In this document: in pieces, positions 7,261-62,478 of the stretch
Numbering within the stretch: position 1 is the stretch's first letter
Layout: every line of letters starts with the position of its first letter
From: Vicinamibacterales bacterium
GTDB lineage: Bacteria > Acidobacteriota > Vicinamibacteria > Vicinamibacterales > UBA2999
Length of the DNA stretch: 64,000 nt
Assembly (NCBI GenBank): GCA_030680175.1
Contig: JAUXWO010000090.1
Location: forward strand, 9,933 to 73,932
Direction: 5' to 3'
Notes under the pieces: generated by a model
Told to the model about the DNA's origin: nothing
The model's database searches: none
The model's input: the letters and a program-made list of their open reading frames with translations, nothing else
Translations under genes and position numbers: made by a program

Positions 7261-8310
7261 TCAGATCTGCATCGCGAGCCACTCCGCCACGACCTTCGAG
7301 CCGGCGTTGCGGTCGAGGGCCATGAGGGCGCGGTCCACGGACTGGAACGCCCGGCGGGCGCGGTCGCCGCCCGCGCCGCGCGTCAGGCGCGTGAGGCTGT
7401 CCTGCAGGTCGGGGTTGGCCAGGACGCGTAGATCCGCCCCGGCGTGGATCACCTCGAGGTCGCGCAACATCGACTGCGCGGCACGCAGCACGATGGCCAC
7501 CTCCTCGCGCGTGCGCTCGGGCTTCGCGCCGATCAGCAGCTTCGCCACCTCGAGCTTCTGCCGCACATCGTCCGACCCCACGATCTGAGCGAGGAACGCC
7601 TGCGCGGTCTGGCGCACCTCGGCGAGGTCCTCGGAGCTCTGCGCCAGCGCGCGCGAGATGCTGCCGTCGGCCAGCGCCGCGGCCGCGCGCGCCTCCGCCG
7701 GCGCGATCGCGTAGTCACGCGTGAGCACACCGGTGACTTCGTCCTCCGTCAGGCGCCCGAAGCGGAGGCGCATGCAGCGCGATCGCACGGTCTGCAGCAG
7801 GACGCCGGCCACGGAGGTGACGAGAATGAAGACGGTGGAGGCGGGCGGCTCCTCGAGCGACTTGAGGAGCGCATTCTGGGCCTGGGGCTCGAGCATCTCC
7901 GCATCGCGGATCAGCACGAAGCGGCGCTTCCCTTCGAACGGCCGGAAGTTGCAGCGCTCGAGCACCTCGCGGACGGGGTCGATCTTGATCGACGACTTCT
8001 CGTCGGGTTCGAGCGCCAGCACGTCCACATGCACGCCGCGGGCGATGCGGTCGCACGACTTGCAGGTCCCGCAGGCATCGATCCGGGTTTCGCTGCCCGC
8101 CGCCCCCTCCTCACCGGACCCGTCCTCCGCGCGCGCGGCCACGATGGGGGCCAGGCAGTTCACGGCCGCGGCCACGGCCTGCGCGACCTGCCACTTCCCC
8201 ACGCCGGGCGGGCCGTCGAACAGCAGCGTCGGCGGCAACGTCCCCCGCACAATCGCCCGCGTCAGCAGGCCGATCACGGGACGATGGCCGGCAAGGTCGC
8301 GGAAAGGCAT
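7261..8310 (-). CDS. holB: DNA polymerase III subunit delta'
   Basis: LLFDGPPGVGKWQVAQAVAAAVNC is an AAA+ clamp-loader P-loop. A Zn-module-like CGTCKSCDRI and an SRC motif (TVRSRCMRL) are also present. Confidence 0.85.
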   Translation of the reverse strand: MPFRDLAGHRPVIGLLTRAIVRGTLPPTLLFDGPPGVGKWQVAQAVAAAVNCLAPIVAARAEDGSGEEGAAGSETRIDACGTCKSCDRIARGVHVDVLALEPDEKSSIKIDPVREVLERCNFRPFEGKRRFVLIRDAEMLEPQAQNALLKSLEEPPASTVFILVTSVAGVLLQTVRSRCMRLRFGRLTEDEVTGVLTRDYAIAPAEARAAAALADGSISRALAQSSEDLAEVRQTAQAFLAQIVGSDDVRQKLEVAKLLIGAKPERTREEVAIVLRAAQSMLRDLEVIHAGADLRVLANPDLQDSLTRLTRGAGGDRARRAFQSVDRALMALDRNAGSKVVAEWLAMQI

Positions 8311-8336
8311 GGGGGATTATGGATCGAGGGGGGCGT

Positions 8337-8434
8337 GGGGAGTGGGTAGTGGGGAGTGGGGAGTGGGGAGTGGGCGGTGGGTAGTGGGGAGTGGGTAGTG
8401 GGGAGTGGGGAGTGGGTAGTGGGGAGTGGGTGGC
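8337..8434. repeat. 14 tandem heptamers GGGNAGT (G-quadruplex-type array on the plus strand)
   Basis: Read directly: ggggagt gggtagt ggggagt ggggagt ggggagt gggcggt gggtagt and so on. The array is intergenic between the PBP1A stop (8494) and the holB start (8310). Confidence 0.9.
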
Positions 8435-13572: not shown

Positions 13573-13641
13573 GCGTGGCTCCATGGCATCGGGGAAGGGG
13601 CACGCGCCGCGGGCATGGCCCGCGACGCGCACACGACACGC

Positions 13642-13753
13642 ACTAGTGGAATGTATCGGCTGAAGAGGTACTACCAGCGCCTCTGCTCAGCCGCGATTCT
13701 GCGGGCCGCCCAACGGGCGGCCCGGTAGTAGATCGTCAACGACACGCCACTAG
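13642..13753. repeat. ~112-bp palindromic MITE/REP-like element, copy A
   Basis: About 95% identical to 60474-60585. It is bounded by ctag...ctag with inverted ends (ctagtgg / ccactag). The central hairpin is gggccgccc-aac-gggcggccc. Confidence 0.85.
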
Positions 13754-14457
13754 ACGGTGGTGGTCTGACGGCCGAACACCATCAGGCCCATGGCCGCGAA
13801 GATGCTGCCGATGCCGAACAGGACGAGCAGCGGCAGGGAGCTGGCCGTGCGCGGCAGCTCCCGAGTGTCCTCCACGGGCTGGGTGACCACGGCGGCCTCC
13901 GGCTGACGCGCCGCCGTCGCGGCGGGCGGCTGAAGGGCCACGGCAACCGGAGGGTTCACCTCGTCGGCCTCCACGGTCACGATCGGCGCCGTCCTGAGCG
14001 CCATCGCATCATCGGCGGCCGCCTCCGTCGACGGCACCGCGGTGTGCGCCTGCTTCGCCAGGGCCACGGCGCGATCGCGCGGGTAGACGAACTCGTGCCC
14101 GACGGTGTTGTTCGGGTGGAACCAGGCGCGAATCGCCTGCGGGGCGCCCGTCGGCGTGTCGCCGTAGGTGATCAGCGTCTCATTCGTCCTGTCGAGACGG
14201 TAGTGGGGAATCGCCATCACGGTCGCGAGGATGCGCGCGCCGTCGACGGTCGAGATCTGCACGACGTGGCGGTCGACCATCGAATCGAGCAGGGTGAAGG
14301 CGTACGTGCCCGCGGGCAGCACCTGGCCCGGAATCTCGATCGGGCCGGCGAAGGTGTGCGTGGCGGTCGTGTCCGGCTGCGCGGCGACGGCCTCGGGGGC
14401 CGCGGTGAACGCGGCGAGCGAGAGCGCGAGGCCGATCCAAAGGGTCTGCTTGATCAT
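13750..14457 (-). CDS. Secreted protein with C-terminal sortase-type sorting signal (LPRTAS + TM + basic tail)
   Basis: ORF 13750..14505 trimmed to ATG 14457. The signal peptide is MIKQTLWIGLALSLAAFTAAPEAVAA. The C-terminus is ELPRTASSLPLLVLFGIGSIFAAMGLMVFGRQ. Confidence 0.7.
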   Translation of the reverse strand: MIKQTLWIGLALSLAAFTAAPEAVAAQPDTTATHTFAGPIEIPGQVLPAGTYAFTLLDSMVDRHVVQISTVDGARILATVMAIPHYRLDRTNETLITYGDTPTGAPQAIRAWFHPNNTVGHEFVYPRDRAVALAKQAHTAVPSTEAAADDAMALRTAPIVTVEADEVNPPVAVALQPPAATAARQPEAAVVTQPVEDTRELPRTASSLPLLVLFGIGSIFAAMGLMVFGRQTTTV

Positions 14458-14704
14458 GGGTGGTCCGTCTGCTTTCTGTACTTCGTGGACGAAGATGTGC
14501 GTCACGAGGAGCGAGAGGGGAAGGGAGGGCGTGTCGCTCCTCTCTCAGCAGCTTGGCACGAAGCCCCGCGAGGCGGTGTGCAGTCCAAGACACACACGGG
14601 AGGCGCGCGCAGGCATCCCCGCGAGGCGGGCGTGGGCGCCGAGGTCGTGGAAGGCGGAAACTGAAAAAGGCCTTGCTGGCGGACCAGCAAGGCCTTCTCA
14701 GTGT

Positions 14705-16675: not shown

Positions 16676-17149
16676 CTACCCGGCGGGGGCGATGCGCGAA
16701 AGCAGATCGCGCGTGGAGTGATCCTTGGGATCGCCAACGATGGCGATGCGTCCGCCGTAGGCGCGCACGGTCTCGCGCTCGGGGACGGTGTCGACCGTGT
16801 AGTCGGTGCCCTTGCAGTGCACGTCGGGCCGCAGCCGTTCGAGCAGCGGCGTCACGGTCGGTTCGGGGAAGATCACCACGTAGTCCACGGCGCCGAGCGC
16901 CGCCACGAGTTCGGCGCGGTCGGCGGCCGGCAGCACGGGACGCGACGGCCCCTTCAGCGTCCGCACCGACCGATCGTCATTGACCGCCACGATCAGGCGA
17001 TCGGCCTCACGGCGCGCGGCCTCGAGGTAGCGCACATGGCCCACGTGCAGCAGATCGAAGCAGCCGTTCGCGAACGCGACCGTCCGCCCCGCCGCGCGAT
17101 CGGCCGCCACACGCACGGCCACGTCCTCCCGGCTCAGGATCTCACCCAC
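16676..17149 (-). CDS. hldC: D-glycero-beta-D-manno-heptose 1-phosphate adenylyltransferase (RfaE domain II)
   Basis: The cytidylyltransferase motif is [18 protein letters not shown]. The protein is 157 aa with a GTG start at 17149. Confidence 0.9.
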
Positions 17150-17188
17150 CGTTCACCGTCCACCGTCCACCGCTCACCGTCCACCGTC
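17147..17188. repeat. Six tandem heptamers CACCGYY spanning the hldA stop and hldC start
   Basis: The units read caccgtt caccgtc caccgtc caccgct caccgtc caccgtc. They cover the 24-nt spacer plus the hldC start codon and the last hldA codons and stop. Confidence 0.9.
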
Positions 17189-18202
17189 CGTCACGGCCTC
17201 GCGCAGCTCCCGCACCGAGACCGTCGCGGTGCCGCGCTTCATCACGACGAGCCCGCCGGCGTAGTTGGCGAGCCGCGCGGCCTCTTCGAAGGTGGCGCCG
17301 GCGCCGAGCGCCAGCGTCATCACGGCCATCACGGTGTCCCCCGCGCCGGTGACGTCCGTCACCTCGTCGGGTCCGTAGATGGGGATGTGCACGGTCGGCT
17401 TGCCGGGCTCGAAGAGGGCCATCCCGCGGCTACCGCGTGTCACGAGCACCGCCTCCATGCGCGTCTTCTCGAGCACGGCGCGCCCCGCACGCTCGAGCAC
17501 GCGCGGGCGGTCCCCGATCGACACCCCCAGCACCTGCTCGACTTCGGATTCGTTCGGCGTGCACGCGGTCAGCCGCGAGAACTTCAGCAACTGGTAGCGC
17601 GAATCGACGAGCACCGGGATGCCACGGGCGTGCAGCGGGCGCGCGAGCGCGGCGACCATCCGCGGATCCACGAGGCCGGACCCGTAATCGGAGATGAGCA
17701 CGGCATCGGCCTGCCGCGTGGCGCGCGTGGCCGCGCGCACGATGGCGGCACGCTGCTGATCGGTGATCGGCCCCGACGGCCCGCGATCGATGCGGACCAC
17801 CTGCTGCTTGGCGGAATGCACGCCGCCGGCCAGGATCCGCGTCTTGACCGGCGTGCGGTACCCGGCCGGACGCACGATGCCCTGCCGGCCAATGCGCGGC
17901 GGCAGCGAGGCCATCAGCCGGCGGCCGGGCTCGTCGCGACCGGCCAGCGCCACGAGGCCGACCTGGCCGCCGAGCGCGGCGACGTTGCTGGCGGCGTTGC
18001 CGGCGCCTCCGGGCAGGATGGCCGTGGAGTCGTATTCGAGGATCAGGACGGGCGCTTCGCGCGACACACGCGCGACGCGCCCATAGACGAACTCGTCCGC
18101 GATCAGGTCACCGAGGACCACGACGCGGCAGGCGCGAAACCACGCGATCAGGTCGAGCAGGCGCCGGGAGGAGGCCGGCGCGGGGCGCTGAGAGGCTGGC
18201 AT
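17174..18202 (-). CDS. hldA: D-glycero-beta-D-manno-heptose-7-phosphate kinase (RfaE domain I, PfkB family)
   Basis: This is a PfkB-type carbohydrate kinase with GAGNAASNVAALGG and DVTGAGDTV motifs. It lies adjacent to hldC. Confidence 0.9.
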   Translation of the reverse strand: MPASQRPAPASSRRLLDLIAWFRACRVVVLGDLIADEFVYGRVARVSREAPVLILEYDSTAILPGGAGNAASNVAALGGQVGLVALAGRDEPGRRLMASLPPRIGRQGIVRPAGYRTPVKTRILAGGVHSAKQQVVRIDRGPSGPITDQQRAAIVRAATRATRQADAVLISDYGSGLVDPRMVAALARPLHARGIPVLVDSRYQLLKFSRLTACTPNESEVEQVLGVSIGDRPRVLERAGRAVLEKTRMEAVLVTRGSRGMALFEPGKPTVHIPIYGPDEVTDVTGAGDTVMAVMTLALGAGATFEEAARLANYAGGLVVMKRGTATVSVRELREAVTDGGR

Positions 18203-19459: not shown

Positions 19460-19650
19460 AGATAGATATCTCCGCAATCTGGTGATGTGGTGATGTGGTG
19501 ACGTGGTGATCTGATGTGGAGATCTGACGATGTTGCGATCGATGTGGTGATCTGATGGATCTATCTTGTGATCTTAAGGGATCTATCTTGCGATCTTGTG
19601 ATCTTGTGATCTGATGTGGCGATCTGTCATCTGACGAGATCTGTGATGGA
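19460..19650. repeat. GTGATGTG / CTTGTGAT-type 8-mer repeat field filling the waaF-gmhB spacer
   Basis: The sequence reads ggtgatgtggtgatgtggtgacgtggtgatctgatgtgg...cttgtgatcttgtgatctgatgtgg. It belongs to the same word family as 14783-14966 and 30972-31070. The motif continues into the last codons of waaF. Confidence 0.85.
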
Positions 19651-25192: not shown

Positions 25193-25206
25193 CGGGGATC
25201 GGGGAA

Positions 25207-25269
25207 CGCCGAAAGCCGAAAGCCGAGAGCCGATAGCCGATAGCCGAGAGCCGAGAGCCGAACGCCGAC
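25207..25269. repeat. Nine tandem heptamers AGCCGAN (gap-pgk spacer)
   Basis: The units read cgccgaa agccgaa agccgag agccgat agccgat agccgag agccgag agccgaa cgccgac. Confidence 0.9.
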
Positions 25270-25278
25270 AGCATCCGT

Positions 25279-26478: not shown

Positions 26479-26485
26479 GGGCGCT

Positions 26486-26667
26486 GTTCGCGATTCGCGA
26501 TTCGCGATTCGCTATTCGCGGTTCGCTATTCGCGGTTCGCAATTCGCAGTTCGCCCGTGCGCCGTTACGTTCTGCATCGTGCATTTCGCATTTCGCGACC
26601 CGCAGTCCGCGATTCGCCGTTCGCTCTCTGTTTTTGCATTCTGCATTTTGCATTTCGCTTTTTGCGT
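26486..26667. repeat. Heptamer array RTTCGCN x10 followed by degenerate GCATTT(C/T) repeats (pgk-tpiA spacer)
   Basis: The array starts gttcgcg attcgcg attcgcg attcgct attcgcg gttcgct attcgcg gttcgca attcgca gttcgcc. It continues with gcatttcgcatttcgcg...tttttgcattctgcattttgcatttcgc. Confidence 0.9.
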
Positions 26668-27460: not shown

Positions 27461-27462
27461 AC

Positions 27463-27632
27463 AGCGATCAGTGGTCGGCTGTCGGCTATCAGCGATCGGC
27501 TTTCGGCTTTCGGCTTTCGGCTACCAGCTTCCGGCGCCACCCCGGCACCACGGCACCACGGCACCACGGCACCTCGGCACCCCGCCCCCAGGCACCCCGG
27601 GCACCCAGGGCACCCCGGGCACCCCGAGCACC
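27463..27632. repeat. Composite array: CGGCTNT heptamers then GGCACCNC 8-9-mers (tpiA-secG spacer)
   Basis: The first part reads cggctgtcggctatcagcgatcggctttcggctttcggctttcggct. The second reads ggcaccacggcaccacggcaccacggcacctcggcacc...ggcaccccgggcacccagggcaccccgggcaccccgagcacc. Confidence 0.9.
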
Positions 27633-28138: not shown

Positions 28139-28224
28139 GCGGAAGTGGCGGAATGGCAGACGCACCAGCTTGAGGGGCTGGCGGGGGCAACCCCGTGGAG
28201 GTTCGAGTCCTCTCTTCCGCACCA
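28139..28224 (+). tRNA. tRNA-Leu (anticodon GAG)
   Basis: The acceptor stem is GCGGAAG/CTTCCGC. The anticodon stem-loop is CCAGC-TTGAGGG-GCTGG. It has a long variable arm (CGGGGGCAACCCCGT), T-loop GGTTCGAGTCC, and encoded CCA. Length is 86 nt. Confidence 0.9.
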
Positions 28225-28721: not shown

Positions 28722-30287
28722 ATGGCAACGCCGCAGGAAAAGCTGGCTGAGTCTCTTGATGCCCTGCACGCGCTGCAGGCGCGCAGCGTGGCAATCCGCT
28801 CCGCTGATTTGAGCCGTACGCACCGCGAGCGCCTGCTCGGCGCCGGTTTCCTGCGGGAAGTGATCAAGGGCTGGTATGTCCCCGCGCGGCCGGACGAGGT
28901 GCCGGGCGACAGCACGCCGTGGTACGCCTCGTTCTGGGATTTCTGCGCCGCCTATCTGGCCGCGCGCTTCGGGAAGGACTGGTGCCTTTCTCCCGAGCAA
29001 TCGCTCTCCTTGCACGCCGGTAACAGGGCCGTGCCGGCGCAGCTGCTCGTGCGCACGCCCAAGGGCGGCAACAAGCCCACCGCGCTGCCGCATGGCACGT
29101 CGCTGTTTGATGTGCGCTATGCGATGCCGAAAGACAGCGAGGTCGTCGAGCGCGATGGTCTGCGGCTGTTCTCCGTTCCGGCGGCACTGGTGACGATATC
29201 GGAGCAGCACTTCGGCCGTGCGGCAACGGATGTGCGCGCAGCCATGGCGGGCGTCAAGGACGCCTCTGACGTGCTTGCCGTCCTGCTCGAGGGCGGCCAC
29301 AGCACGATCGCCGGGCGCCTGGCCGGCGCGTTCCGCAATGTCGGACAGGCGCGTATCGCCGACGGGATTCTCAAGACGATGACAGCGGCCGGCTACACGG
29401 TGCGGGAGAGCGATCCGTTCGAGGACCAGCCGGGCATCGTGCTGGCCGGCCGTGACGTTTCGCCCTACGTGAACCGCATTCGCCTGATGTGGGATGCGAT
29501 GCGTCAGCCTGCGCTGGATGCGTTTCCTGCCGCACCCGGACTCTCCCGCCAGCTGGAGACGTATCTGAAAGCCGTCGAGGACGTGTATGTGAACGATGCC
29601 TACCACTCCCTGTCGATTGAGGGCTACCGGGTCAGCCGCGAGCTCATCGAACGTGTGCGCAGCGGTGCGTGGAATCCCGATCAGAACGCCGAGGATCGTG
29701 AGAATCGCAGTGCACTCGCTGCGCGCGGGTACTACGATGCGTTCGGCGCAGTGAAGGCGAGTATCGGGAACGTGCTGCGCGGCGATAATCCTGGGATAGT
29801 CAGCCGCGATGATCACTCTGGCTGGTACCGGCGCCTGTTCGGACCGAGCGTGAGCGCGGGTCTCATCCGCGCTGCCGATCTGGCGGGCTACCGCAGCGGA
29901 CCGGTTTATATCCGGCGCTCGATGCATGTGCCGCCGCCGCGCGAGGCGGTGCGCGATTGCATGCCGGCGCTGTTCGAGCTTCTCGCGTCGGAGCCTGAAC
30001 CGGCTGTGCGCGCCGTGCTCGGGCACTTCGCGTTCGTTTACATCCATCCTTATATGGACGGCAACGGAAGGATGGGGCGCTTCCTGATGAATGTGATGAT
30101 GGCTGCGGGCGGCTACCCGTGGACCATCATTCCCCTTGAGCGGCGTGACGAGTACATGGCCACGCTCGAATCCGCGAGCGTGAAGCAGGACATCCGCCCG
30201 TTTGCGGCTTTCATCGGCGGCCTGGTGCGCGACGGCCTGCAAGGCAAGCCGCCGCCGCCCGTGCCGCTTCCGCGCGCGCGGTCATGA
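28722..30287 (+). CDS. Fic/DOC family protein (large, with N-terminal AbiEi-like domain)
   Basis: The Fic core motif is HPYMDGNGRMGR (HxFx[D/E]GNGRxxR). An upstream SLSIEG matches the [S/T]xxxE[G/N] inhibitory-helix motif. The N-terminus (RERLLGAGFLREVIKGWYVPARPDE) resembles AbiEi-type wHTH domains. Confidence 0.9.
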   Translation: MATPQEKLAESLDALHALQARSVAIRSADLSRTHRERLLGAGFLREVIKGWYVPARPDEVPGDSTPWYASFWDFCAAYLAARFGKDWCLSPEQSLSLHAGNRAVPAQLLVRTPKGGNKPTALPHGTSLFDVRYAMPKDSEVVERDGLRLFSVPAALVTISEQHFGRAATDVRAAMAGVKDASDVLAVLLEGGHSTIAGRLAGAFRNVGQARIADGILKTMTAAGYTVRESDPFEDQPGIVLAGRDVSPYVNRIRLMWDAMRQPALDAFPAAPGLSRQLETYLKAVEDVYVNDAYHSLSIEGYRVSRELIERVRSGAWNPDQNAEDRENRSALAARGYYDAFGAVKASIGNVLRGDNPGIVSRDDHSGWYRRLFGPSVSAGLIRAADLAGYRSGPVYIRRSMHVPPPREAVRDCMPALFELLASEPEPAVRAVLGHFAFVYIHPYMDGNGRMGRFLMNVMMAAGGYPWTIIPLERRDEYMATLESASVKQDIRPFAAFIGGLVRDGLQGKPPPPVPLPRARS

Positions 30288-30324
30288 AGGGCGCGGCGGA
30301 TCGAGGCCTCGGCAAGGGATGTGC

Positions 30325-30358
30325 GGGCGGCCCGGTAGTGGAACGTCAACGACACCCC
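30325..30358. repeat. Half copy (right arm) of the 112-bp palindromic element
   Basis: gggcggcccggtagtggaacgtcaacgacacccc aligns with gggcggcccggtagtagatcgtcaacgacac(g/c)cc in copies A and B. Confidence 0.75.
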
Positions 30359-30666
30359 CTTTAATCCCGGTCGGCCCTTGCGTTGGCGTTGCGGAGGCCG
30401 ACGTGGGAGGCGCGCGATGGGCGTCAGTACGCAACGTGCGCCGCAGGGAGCGTGCGCTTTCGAGCGCCGGCGCCGTAGGCCCAGCCGAAGGGGGGCCGGG
30501 TAGGCGCGGCGCGATGGGCGTCAGCACGAAAGCGCTCGCGCACGGAGGCGCAGGTGGCGAGCGCGCCCTCCCGGAGGCCGGAGCGACGGCAACGCAAGGG
30601 CCGATCGCGATTTGGGGGGGGGCGGGACTGCGGCGAGGCCGGTCTTTAGGTACGGAGCGAGAATCC

Positions 30667-40953: not shown

Positions 40954-41022
40954 TGCGTCCCCCTCGGAGACCAGCCTACCAGTACGCGCCGCGGACGCGC
41001 CCCCGTGGTCCCCGCTTCCCGC

Positions 41023-41077
41023 CCCCGATCCCCGATCCCCGATCCCTGATCCCTGATCCCCCGATCCCCGATCCCCG
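41023..41077. repeat. Eight tandem heptamers CCCYGAT (G4N3 motif on the minus strand)
   Basis: The units read ccccgat ccccgat ccccgat ccctgat ccctgat cccccgat ccccgat ccccg. The array lies in the divergent spacer between the DUF3014 and amidase genes. Confidence 0.9.
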
Positions 41078-42816: not shown

Positions 42817-42865
42817 GGGGATCGGCGAATAGCGAACAGCGAATGGCGAATAGCGAATAGCGAAC
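42817..42865. repeat. Seven tandem heptamers RGCGAAY (complement of the RTTCGCN family)
   Basis: The units read ggggatc ggcgaat agcgaac agcgaat ggcgaat agcgaat agcgaac. The array ends 1 nt before the GH15 GTG start. Confidence 0.9.
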
Positions 42866-58873: not shown

Positions 58874-59088
58874 GTGTTGGACCTACGTCGGTCTTTGACG
58901 AGGCTCAGCCGTGAAAAGTTGAGCGGAACCGCCCCAGCCCGGCCGTGCGCGCGAAATCGTGCATCGCGGGGCCGATTCGGCTTGCCGAGGTCCGGCGCGG
59001 CGAGTACCAATAAGGAAGTTTCGAACGCGACACGGTCGGTGTTGACCGTCCCCCGCCACCCGAGTTCAAGCGTTCCAAGGGGGCACCT

Positions 59089-59364
59089 GTGGCACTGCTT
59101 TCCCGTACTTCCAGCACGACACGGATCGACATCCGCGTGCGCGCGATCGACGAGCGGCGCCTGCTCGATCGCATCCGTGCCGAATTTCTGGAGATGCCGG
59201 GGCTTGACCTGACGCCGGCCCAGGCCCAGCGGCTCTGGGGCCTCGACCAGCTGACGTGCGAGTACCTGTGCGGACGGCTGCTCGAGGACGGCTTCCTCTG
59301 CCGCACGTCGCGCGGCACCTTCGTCAGGCGGGACACGGCCCGCCCTCGCACACAGATGAACTGA
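59089..59364 (+). CDS. Hypothetical small protein (possible winged-helix)
   Basis: The protein is 91 aa with a GTG start. The pattern EFLEMPGLDLTPAQAQRLWGLDQLTCEYLCGRLLEDGFLCRTSRGTFVR resembles a recurrent small conserved family. This is recalled only by pattern. Confidence 0.4.
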   Translation: MALLSRTSSTTRIDIRVRAIDERRLLDRIRAEFLEMPGLDLTPAQAQRLWGLDQLTCEYLCGRLLEDGFLCRTSRGTFVRRDTARPRTQMN

Positions 59365-60473: not shown

Positions 60474-60585
60474 GCTAGTGGAGTGTATCGACTGAAGAGG
60501 TACTACCAGCGCTTCTGCTCAGCCGCGATTCCGCGGGCCGCCCAACGGGCGGCCCGGTAGTAGATCGTCAACGACACCCCACTAG
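60474..60585. repeat. ~112-bp palindromic MITE/REP-like element, copy B
   Basis: It differs from copy A (13642-13753) at about five positions. It is bounded by ctag...ctag. The right-hand ctag contains the korA stop codon. Confidence 0.85.
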
Positions 60586-62378
60586 GCCGCCTTGTCGATT
60601 TTCGCCCGGACGCCCGTCACCACGTGGTGGGCGCTCATCGGGAAGCCGCCGTAGTACCGCACCGAGTGCAGCCGGTCGAGCGGCACAGCGGTCTCGAGCG
60701 TCAGCAGGTTACGGAGCTGCCCGTCGCGGTTCTGCTCCACCACGAAGTTCACCTCGTGCGCCTCGAGGAACTGCCGCACATCGTCGCCGAACGGGAACCC
60801 GCGCACGCGCATGAAGTCGAGGGCGATGCCCTCACGCTCGAGCAGGTCGAGCGCCTCTACGCACGCCGCGTGGCAGCCGCCGATCGTCACGACGCCCATC
60901 GTGGCGCCCGGCCGGTGGCGGATGACGGGCGCGGGGACGGCCGCGGCGGCGTTCTGGATCTTGCGGGCGATCCGATCGACGACGTCCGTGTACTCCTCGT
61001 CGTCTTCGGTGTAGCGGCCGAAGCGGTTGTGGCCGGAGCCGCGCGCGAAGTAGGCGCCGTTCGGGTGCACCCCCGGCAGGGTGCGCGCGGCGATTCCGTC
61101 GCCATCGGCATCGACATACCGGTAGAACGCCTTGAGGGACTCCAGTTCCTCGACGCCGAGCACCTTGCCCCGGTCCGGACGGTAGGTGTCATCCCAGGTG
61201 AGCTTCGGGACCATCCAGTCGTTCATGCCGATGTCGAGATCGGTCAGCACGAAGACGGGTGTCTGAAAGCGCTCGGCCAGATCGAAGGCCGCGACGGCGA
61301 ACTCGAACGCCTCCCGGGGGTCGGACGGATAGAGGCAGACGTGCCGCGTGTCCCCATGGGAGGCATACGCGCACATCATCAGATCGCCCTGCTGCGTGCG
61401 TGTGGGCATCCCCGTGGACGGGCCCGTGCGCTGGACATCGAAGATCACGGCCGGCACCTCGGCGTAGTACGCCAGGCCGAGGAACTCGTTCATCAGCGAG
61501 ATGCCGGGACCGGAGGTGGGCGTGAAGGCGCGCGCGCCGGACCATCCGGCGCCGATCACCATGCCGATGGCGGCCAGTTCGTCCTCGGCCTGCAGGATCG
61601 CGTACCGGTTCTGCCTGGTCTCCGGATCGCGCCGGTACTTCTTGCAGAACCCGTTGAAGGCCTCCATCATCGAGGTGGACGGCGTGATGGGATACCACGC
61701 GCCGACGGTCGCGCCGGCGTACACGCAGCCGAGCGCCGCCGACGTGTTGCCGTCGATGAGGATCGCCTCCCGGGTTTCGTCCATCGGGGCGAGACGAATC
61801 GGCAGCGGGCAGTCGAAGTGCTCGGTGGCGTAGTCGAATCCGAGCGCGAGGGCCGCGTCGTTCGAATCGAGCAGCGCCGGCTTGGCCGCGTACTTCTCAC
61901 GGATGAGCGCCCGCACGATCTCGGTATCCATGCCGATGAGCGCCGCGAGCGCCCCGGCATAGGCGATGTTCTTCATCAGGATGCGCTCGCGCACCCCCGC
62001 GAACCGCGCGTTGCACAGCCCGGCGAGCGGCACACCGAGGTAGGTGACGTCGGGCCGCTTCAGCGCCGCATCGAGCGGCCACGTCGCGTCGAAGAGCAGC
62101 CAGCCGCCGCTGCGCACCTCGGCCACGTCCCGGGCGTAGGTCGCGGGATTGAGGGCGACCATCAGGTCGAAGTGTGGCGTCCGGGCGGTGTAGCCGTCCT
62201 TGCTGACGCGGATCTCGTACCACGTCGGCAGGCCCTGGATGTTCGACGGGAACACGTTCTTCCCCGTCACCGGCACACCCATCCGGAAGATGGCCTGCAT
62301 GATCAGCCCGTTGGCCGACGCGGACCCCGTGCCGTTCGGCGTGGCGATCTTGAAGGCGAAATCGTTCGTGCGATCCAT
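60582..62378 (-). CDS. korA: 2-oxoacid:ferredoxin oxidoreductase subunit alpha
   Basis: The protein is 598 aa. The N-terminal gamma-like domain (IATPNGTGSASANGL) is fused to the alpha domain (AWYPITPST), typical of KorA. Confidence 0.9.
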   Translation of the reverse strand: MDRTNDFAFKIATPNGTGSASANGLIMQAIFRMGVPVTGKNVFPSNIQGLPTWYEIRVSKDGYTARTPHFDLMVALNPATYARDVAEVRSGGWLLFDATWPLDAALKRPDVTYLGVPLAGLCNARFAGVRERILMKNIAYAGALAALIGMDTEIVRALIREKYAAKPALLDSNDAALALGFDYATEHFDCPLPIRLAPMDETREAILIDGNTSAALGCVYAGATVGAWYPITPSTSMMEAFNGFCKKYRRDPETRQNRYAILQAEDELAAIGMVIGAGWSGARAFTPTSGPGISLMNEFLGLAYYAEVPAVIFDVQRTGPSTGMPTRTQQGDLMMCAYASHGDTRHVCLYPSDPREAFEFAVAAFDLAERFQTPVFVLTDLDIGMNDWMVPKLTWDDTYRPDRGKVLGVEELESLKAFYRYVDADGDGIAARTLPGVHPNGAYFARGSGHNRFGRYTEDDEEYTDVVDRIARKIQNAAAAVPAPVIRHRPGATMGVVTIGGCHAACVEALDLLEREGIALDFMRVRGFPFGDDVRQFLEAHEVNFVVEQNRDGQLRNLLTLETAVPLDRLHSVRYYGGFPMSAHHVVTGVRAKIDKAA

Positions 62379-62387
62379 ACGGGTCTC

Positions 62388-62478
62388 GTCTATCGGCTAT
62401 CGGCGCTCAGCTATCGGCTTTCGGCTTTCGGCTTTCGGCTGCCTTTTCGCATTTCGCATTTCGCATTTTGCATTCCGC
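62388..62478. repeat. Composite array: CGGCTNT heptamers then CGCATTT heptamers
   Basis: The units read ctatcggctatcggcgctcagctatcggctttcggctttcggctttcggct gccttttcgcatttcgcatttcgcattttgcattccg. Confidence 0.9.

Follow-up and report, generated by a model that had tools for sequence, protein, structure and literature searches.

A probable CTAG-bounded miniature inverted-repeat transposable element at operon junctions of an uncultured Vicinamibacterales bacterium

The stretch of DNA analysed here (hereafter, the window) comprises 64,000 nt at 70% G+C from an uncultured soil member of the Vicinamibacterales (Acidobacteriota); its KorB, sortase and ApbE are 100% identical to proteins encoded in an NCBI metagenome-assembled genome. 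Two of its minus-strand gene pairs are each separated by a full copy of the same repeat, which has the same orientation relative to transcription in both. The first pair consists of a 251-aa ORF (13750-14505, minus strand) followed by the gene of a class D sortase (Pfam PF04203; annotated start 13572). The product of this ORF ends in ...ELPRTAS, a hydrophobic segment and an R, which makes it a plausible LPXTA sortase substrate judging from its C-terminus. The second pair is formed by korA (60582-62378) and korB, encoding the alpha and beta subunits of a 2-oxoacid:ferredoxin oxidoreductase. These neighbours had been named in a preliminary description of the sequence, and the names agree with Pfam and with protein-level annotation. 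As that description also claimed, the right-hand CTAG of the repeat carries the stop codon of the upstream gene in both copies: the TAG of the LPRTA-protein gene (13750-13752, minus strand) and that of korA (60582-60584, minus strand) both lie inside the terminal CTAG. In both cases the downstream gene has its purine-rich ribosome-binding sequence outside the repeat.

Repeat searches and BLAST within the 64-kb window delimited the repeat as 111 nt from CTAG to CTAG, located at 13643-13753 (copy 1, in the spacer between the LPRTA-protein and sortase genes; nhmmer E = 1.6e-36) and at 60475-60585 (copy 2, in the korA/korB spacer). The two copies are identical at 106 of 111 positions (95.5%; BLAST E = 1.6e-47), with mismatches at element positions 9, 17, 39, 58 and 104, although they are 47 kb apart in unrelated contexts. 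Two near-identical copies with some five differences, each bounded by CTAG on both sides, had been reported before, and both observations stand; the length of 112 then given took in one flanking base on the left, which is an A next to one full copy and a G next to the other. Similarity between the copies ends abruptly at both CTAGs, with no homology in the flanks. Between the flanking CTAGs lies a non-coding core of 103-105 nt. The two full copies had been correctly listed, but a partial copy of 35 nt was overlooked. It lies at 30324-30358 (plus strand), just 3' of a Fic-domain gene, corresponds to element positions 73-107 at 91-94% identity, and consists of the right arm of the hairpin described below and the right inverted repeat, lacking the terminal CCACTAG. 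A fourth copy was found in a relative, on a JGI metagenome contig (L009:7389-7499), and is 81% identical to the window element. The known family is thus made up of two full copies and one fragment in the window and one copy in L009.

The ends of the element are inverted repeats, with CTAGTGG and CCACTAG matching perfectly over 7 nt. The terminal inverted repeat has the consensus CTAGTGGNGTGT (10-11 of 12 positions matching), and in a self-alignment with the reverse complement an imperfect symmetry extends to about 33 nt. In copy 1, this alignment places the left repeat (CTAGTGGAATGT) at 13643-13654 and the right repeat (ACACGCCACTAG) at 13742-13753, both given on the plus strand. Further inside, GGTACTACC pairs with GGTAGTA, and a 9-bp G+C hairpin, GGGCCGCCC-AAC-GGGCGGCCC, occupies 13703-13723 in copy 1 and 60535-60555 in copy 2. 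The nested palindrome of the preliminary description is real, and its G+C hairpin lies off centre. The predicted fold has an energy of about -60 kcal/mol on either strand (z = -5.5 and -6.3 against dinucleotide shuffles), and none of 200 such shuffles was as stable as the element. Stop codons are present in all six frames of both full copies, so that no reading frame runs through the element, which is non-coding.

Immediately beside copy 1, at 13626-13642 (minus strand; extending to 13646 with the terminal CTAG), the flank reads CTAGTG-CGTGTCGTGTG and agrees with the element's own start at 15 of 17 positions. In a fuzzy search with the 17-nt end of the element, this flank was the only match besides the true ends. 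It could be the solo-end remnant of a second insertion into copy 1's own terminal CTAG; such an event would fit CTAG targeting.

Further searches suggest a family of narrow distribution. A profile built from three copies (nhmmer) revealed no additional copies in any of the fetched loci, among them the L010-L012 and L021-L023 contigs and 20 kb of L020. No copy was present in about 45 kb of sequence from more distant relatives, which makes the family look young and narrowly distributed. The pattern CCGGTAGTNGANCGTCAACGAC gave eight matches across a genome-contig collection, all of them chance 22-mers in unrelated taxa, and no match across a viral-contig collection, while BLAST against plasmid and phage records returned nothing relevant. 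Of two patterns scanned against metagenomes, one gave zero matches and the other four chance matches; the second should match the L009 contig yet missed the L009 copy, indicating that the collections are incomplete for this lineage. An attempt to find copies through miscalled genes failed, since a 37-aa spurious ORF spanning the element gave only low-complexity matches among 1.84 billion representative proteins.

Assemblers typically break at repeats. A Logan assembly of the same strain (contig L017, SRR13727517) ends inside the element, at element position 45 (L017:1-44). Copies 1 and 2 do not become identical at that point, and the SRR13727517 sample may thus contain more copies or variants.

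The tetranucleotide that bounds the element is very rare in this DNA. CTAG occurs eight times in 64 kb, against 176 occurrences expected from mononucleotide composition and about 45 expected under a Markov model. The roughly 5-fold deficit relative to the Markov expectation is unusually strong, and it is found even though TAG is a common stop, ending 19 of the 47 predicted genes in the window. Four of the eight CTAGs are ends of the element, and three of the other four are stop codons, namely those of the sortase gene (12961), pgk (26475) and korB (59393). As CTAG is depleted and survives mostly as stops, an element that seeks CTAG would find few places other than stop codons, and the earlier proposal that a CTAG target accounts for the position of the copies agrees with these counts. 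Restriction avoidance, a mismatch repair bias or the purging of transposon targets are possible causes of the depletion.

Comparison of orthologous loci showed that relatives differ in the presence or absence of the element at three sites. The korB gene of L009 is 94.8% identical to that of the window at the DNA level and 95% at the protein level, and its korA-korB spacer is a 61-nt run of heptamer repeats without the element. The spacer of L023 (KorB 90% identical) is 11 nt long and also lacks it, as do the spacers of L010-L012 (KorB 87%), which hold other short repeats. The element is likewise absent between the substrate and sortase genes of L018 and L019 (sortase 75% identical). These two sequences align with the window through ...ACCACCGTC and again from GCGTGCACG..., with 107-111 nt missing and the alignment resuming about 10 nt on; their substrate gene ends ...ACCACCGTC TGA. 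The reverse case was found in L009, where the site at 7389-7499, between a conserved 91-aa gene and the gene of a MacB-type permease, is filled and its window counterpart is empty. This counterpart, CTGG at 58934-58937 (minus strand), has well-aligned flanks and lies upstream of the MacB-type permease gene.

Three filled/empty differences (korA|korB, substrate|sortase and the MacB-type permease locus) were thus obtained where the preliminary description had proposed looking for empty sites. That description had also weighed the possibility of an ancestral, vertically conserved RNA, which is contradicted by the empty orthologous sites at both window insertions. Together with the filled L009 site, which is unoccupied in the window, these empty sites indicate that the element moved. 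It is non-coding and shorter than about 300 bp, has terminal inverted repeats, occurs as dispersed copies with sharp borders, and alternates with empty sites, all of which are characteristics of MITEs (miniature inverted-repeat transposable elements). On these grounds we consider the repeat to be probably a lineage-specific MITE with ends CTAGTGGNGTGT and CTAG on both sides.

Could a local palindrome resembling a terminator instead have been duplicated without transposition, by chance or by recombination (segmental copying or gene conversion)? Only two full copies are seen directly, and both are downstream of genes, as such an origin would have it. However, their borders are exact to the base in two unrelated contexts and fall on a tetranucleotide that is very rare in the genome, and no flanking homology exists that could drive recombination. 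An additional fragmentary copy exists at 30324-30358, and L009 carries a diverged copy at a different locus whose window site is empty. We regard duplication as highly improbable.

The details of the empty sites deserve attention in relation to the target. After excision of the element and one CTAG, a CTAG-target model predicts an empty site reading CTAG; the three empty sites read CTGA, CTGA and CTGG, none of them CTAG and none containing TA, which counts against the model. The L009 copy is flanked by CTAG at one end and by TGAG at the other. At two of the empty sites the flanks are too diverged to place the junction to the base, and the substrate|sortase and MacB-type sites would require one or two substitutions in diverged flanks, which is plausible. 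The ancestral korA stop is not inferable from these relatives: the window and L009 are sisters, and the stop is TGA in L023 and TAG in L010-L012. In L009 the GA of the TGA stop belongs to the first unit of the heptamer array, which shows that the korA-korB spacer turns over quickly. CTAG is, moreover, a palindrome, so that any target duplication would be inseparable from the inverted repeat.

The sequence of the empty sites leaves room for a different reading of the insertions. The element might integrate at C^TGR, including directly before TGA stops, its own TAG then replacing the stop codon of the host; or it might have been co-opted as an orientation-dependent module of mRNA processing or stability in operons. 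We give this alternative a small probability only. If true, it would describe a stop-codon-directed mobile element with a regulatory afterlife and not an ordinary MITE.

Both operons also raise the question of what the element does once transcribed. It is probably co-transcribed in each of them, and according to the predicted fold it would form a very stable hairpin in the mRNA. Effects on mRNA processing or stability are possible by analogy with ERIC and NEMIS, which are co-transcribed MITEs that affect mRNA processing, ERIC in connection with RNase E and NEMIS with RNase III (PMC2229807). A rival reading is a cis-acting RNA module (an intra-operon processing site, a stabiliser or an attenuator hairpin) kept by selection for structure, whatever its origin. 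The position of both full window copies inside operons, in the same orientation relative to transcription, speaks for such a module, as do the minus-strand RNA folding at -60 kcal/mol and the changes in the L009 copy, where two hairpin G-C pairs became G-U on the same strand and two stem pairs are compensatory. These observations are offset by several others. In close relatives the sequence is missing from the orthologous operon junctions, which means that these operons can do without it. In L009 the copy is flanked by divergent genes, and the 30324 fragment is oriented the opposite way relative to its neighbour gene.

The structural evidence points the same way. Over three copies and 40 predicted pairs there are two compensatory changes, four one-sided compatible changes and seven pairs broken in the L009 copy, and the L009 substitutions hit paired positions at the chance rate. 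Covariation, proposed earlier as a means of telling a structured RNA from a MITE, gave no signal above shuffled controls: between 100 and 192 of 500 shuffles reached the observed values, with three copies offering minimal power. Compensatory change is in any case expected in inverted repeats that are two binding sites of one transposase. With Rfam 15 at gathering thresholds, the only matches in the whole window were three tRNAs, and the best sub-threshold match on the element reached 15.9 bits (E = 0.77), where the gathering score is 50. Neither a sigma-70-like promoter nor a hairpin followed by a U-run was detected within 300 nt on either side of either copy, on both strands in the case of terminators. 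With no Rfam match, U-tract or promoter, a mixed orientation over the four copies and covariation not above controls, the stabiliser or attenuator role put forward in the preliminary description gained no support, and we consider an RNA module kept by selection to be unlikely.

The G+C hairpin might also be mistaken for an intrinsic terminator. The bases after it are GCAGAAUC and GGUAGUAG on the two strands, neither of which is a run of T/U, and an intrinsic terminator was ruled out on account of the missing U tract.

The same hairpin invites comparison with REP and REPIN sequences, which are also palindromic, have a G+C-rich hairpin, and occur between genes near stop codons. Under this explanation the element would have been spread by a RAYT, an IS200/IS605-like tyrosine transposase recognising the hairpin, and not by a DDE enzyme acting on inverted repeats. 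The strong G+C hairpin lies within a longer imperfect palindrome of about REPIN length, GTAG adjoins it (GGGCGGCCC-G-GTAG), the fragment at 30324-30358 starts exactly at its right arm, and the intergenic, stop-codon-proximal position is that of many REPs (PMC3733652). REPs, however, carry a GTAG or CGTC tag at the 5' foot of the palindrome, and in the GTAG-tagged ones the tetranucleotide is 5' of the stem (equivalently, CTAC 3' of it), whereas the GTAG of the element is 3' of the stem and hence of the wrong polarity. There is one off-centre hairpin in place of two inverted REPs, similarity breaks off at the inverted repeats with their CTAGs and not at the hairpin, and neither a RAYT nor a Y1 transposase gene is present in the window. 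The L009 copy retains a recognisable left end, but its hairpin is degraded, with 3 of 9 pairs broken at the DNA level. A REP/REPIN identity is quite unlikely in view of these differences. Two other kinds of element were considered and ruled out: an integron attC site, because both insertions are inside conserved housekeeping operons and not cassettes, and an IS200/IS605-type PATE, because the element has true terminal inverted repeats and two internal hairpins of unrelated sequence.

Returning to the MITE interpretation, we turn to the enzyme that would mobilise the element. No transposase family of Pfam was matched by any of the 48 predicted (GC3-supported) genes of the window, nor by the Fic-domain gene. 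No autonomous element with matching ends was found in the window, where the 17-nt end was matched elsewhere only by the flank of copy 1. An IS5-family transposase had been suggested earlier, and the junctions are indeed compatible with a 4-bp CTAG duplication, but IS630 gives identical junctions and no transposase gene in the window backs the attribution. IS630 has a documented preference for inserting at the TA within 5'-CTAG-3', which it duplicates in the process (Tenzen & Ohtsubo 1991, as cited in PMC2170065). A repeat starting with G and ending with C at the TA of CTAG reproduces the CTAG...CTAG borders of the element, and the junctions (C-TA-G...C-TA-G) are compatible with this type of duplication, although the three empty sites lack TA. 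Since TA duplication by IS630 and CTAG duplication of the IS5 type leave the same CTAG...CTAG junctions, sequence alone cannot separate them. Judging from the 5'-TG...CA-3' ends that are left when CTAG is removed, an IS3-type enzyme would suit as well.

Among described elements, several MITEs come close. RUP, the repeat unit of pneumococcus, is 107 bp long with stops in all six frames, and its mobilisation is attributed to an IS630 member (PMC2229807). Together with other bacterial MITEs derived from IS630/Tc1-mariner elements, it resembles the Vicinamibacterales element in length (107 bp vs 105-111 bp), in its inverted repeats, junction TA and six-frame stops, and in its intergenic location (PMC2229807). 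The resemblance ends at the enzyme and the target, as neither an IS630-family transposase nor a matching inverted repeat was found in the window and the empty sites are without TA.

MITEPsy1, a 100-nt MITE of Pseudomonas syringae related to the IS5-family element ISPsy2, inserts at CTAG/YTAA with a 4-nt duplication (PMC3189936), which would give the same junctions, and those of the element are compatible with an IS5-type YTAR duplication. The left repeat reads GGAATGT one base after CTAG and is loosely similar, by eye, to the GGAAGGT of the repeat given in PMC3189936. Apart from this, the inverted repeats show no relationship (GGAAGGTCTGAAAAAGCC vs TGGAATGTATCGGCTGAAG): there is an extra T between CTAG and GG, the right repeat reads GGCGTGT, and the window contains no IS5-family gene.

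The Correia or NEMIS elements of Neisseria are MITEs of about 105-155 bp that duplicate TA, often abut genes, are co-transcribed and form an end-to-end hairpin; the 155-bp form has stops in all frames (PMC2229807). They start with TA-TAGTGGATTAA (TATAGTGGATTAA..., PMC5039591) and the present element with C-TAGTGGAATGT, so that the terminal heptamer TAGTGGA is common to both. This identity may be due to chance, given that no similarity extends past the 7 nt, no IHF site or promoter-like hexamers were detected in the element, and the hosts belong to different phyla and have a different base composition.

The bacterial MITEs described so far are mostly A+T-rich. The element differs from them in being G+C-rich and in residing in an acidobacterium of 70% G+C.

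We propose that a DDE transposase encoded elsewhere in the genome would move the element in trans and integrate it at CTAG. This could be an IS630/Tc1-like enzyme that duplicates only the central TA, or an IS5-like one that duplicates the whole tetranucleotide. CTAG is strongly depleted in this genome of 70% G+C and persists almost exclusively at TAG stops preceded by a codon ending in C, and an element seeking it would land at the 3' ends of genes, also within operons. There the insertion would restore the TAG stop. With stops in six frames, no U-tract terminator and the downstream ribosome-binding site outside the element, the insertion would be tolerated and carried along as a harmless mRNA hairpin of about -60 kcal/mol.

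Under the MITE interpretation, the element is a new family of an ordinary, known kind and involves no new biology; current understanding of transposition is unchanged by it. To our knowledge, there are hardly any descriptions of MITEs from Acidobacteriota, and the present family seems to be confined to one lineage known only from metagenomes. It offers an example of how target specificity and genome composition may jointly decide where mobile DNA settles, with the rarity of CTAG at 70% G+C steering a CTAG-seeking element towards stop codons and the junctions within operons, places in which it causes little damage. Repeats of this kind also have practical consequences, as they break short-read assemblies (the Logan contig above being one case) and can be mistaken for regulatory RNAs or terminators.

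The surroundings of the partial copy displayed further repeats. After the tRNA-Leu(GAG) gene (28139-28224) come 3.5 tandem copies of a 115-nt unit (95% matches) that extend to 28596, and each unit starts with a copy of the tRNA 3' end; the arrangement resembles the outcome of repeated integration or excision events at a tRNA attachment site. Adjoining these repeats is the 521-aa Fic-domain gene (28722-30287), whose stop is 36 nt upstream of the partial copy. The Fic-domain gene failed the third- or second-position G+C filter that the other 48 genes passed, suggesting that it was probably acquired horizontally. Where the partial copy ends, an imperfect palindrome of 266 nt begins (30355-30620; 45-nt arms, 78% complementary, 176 nt between them), which may be a second and unrelated MITE-like element.

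Near the other end of the window, korB and the MacB-type permease gene are separated by a conserved 91-aa ORF (window 59089-59364, plus strand; L009:6963-7238; L010:2475-2750). It is present in all three sequences and had no Pfam match.

More than ten intergenic spacers contain short tandem arrays with a period of 7 nt, sometimes 8 nt. In the window these include 8326-8430, 17146-17189, 19480-19557, 25204-25272, 26482-26554, 27462-27632, 41022-41077, 42824-42864 and 62386-62478, and in the relatives L009:5787-5847 and L010:1303-1378. The unit varies from spacer to spacer (GAGTGGG, GAAAGCC, TTCGCGA, TCGGCTT, CCCCGAT, GCGAATA and others). The korA-korB spacers of relatives hold different arrays, with GCGAAGA-type units in L009 and CCCTTAC-type units in L010, suggesting that the arrays turn over quickly at fixed positions.
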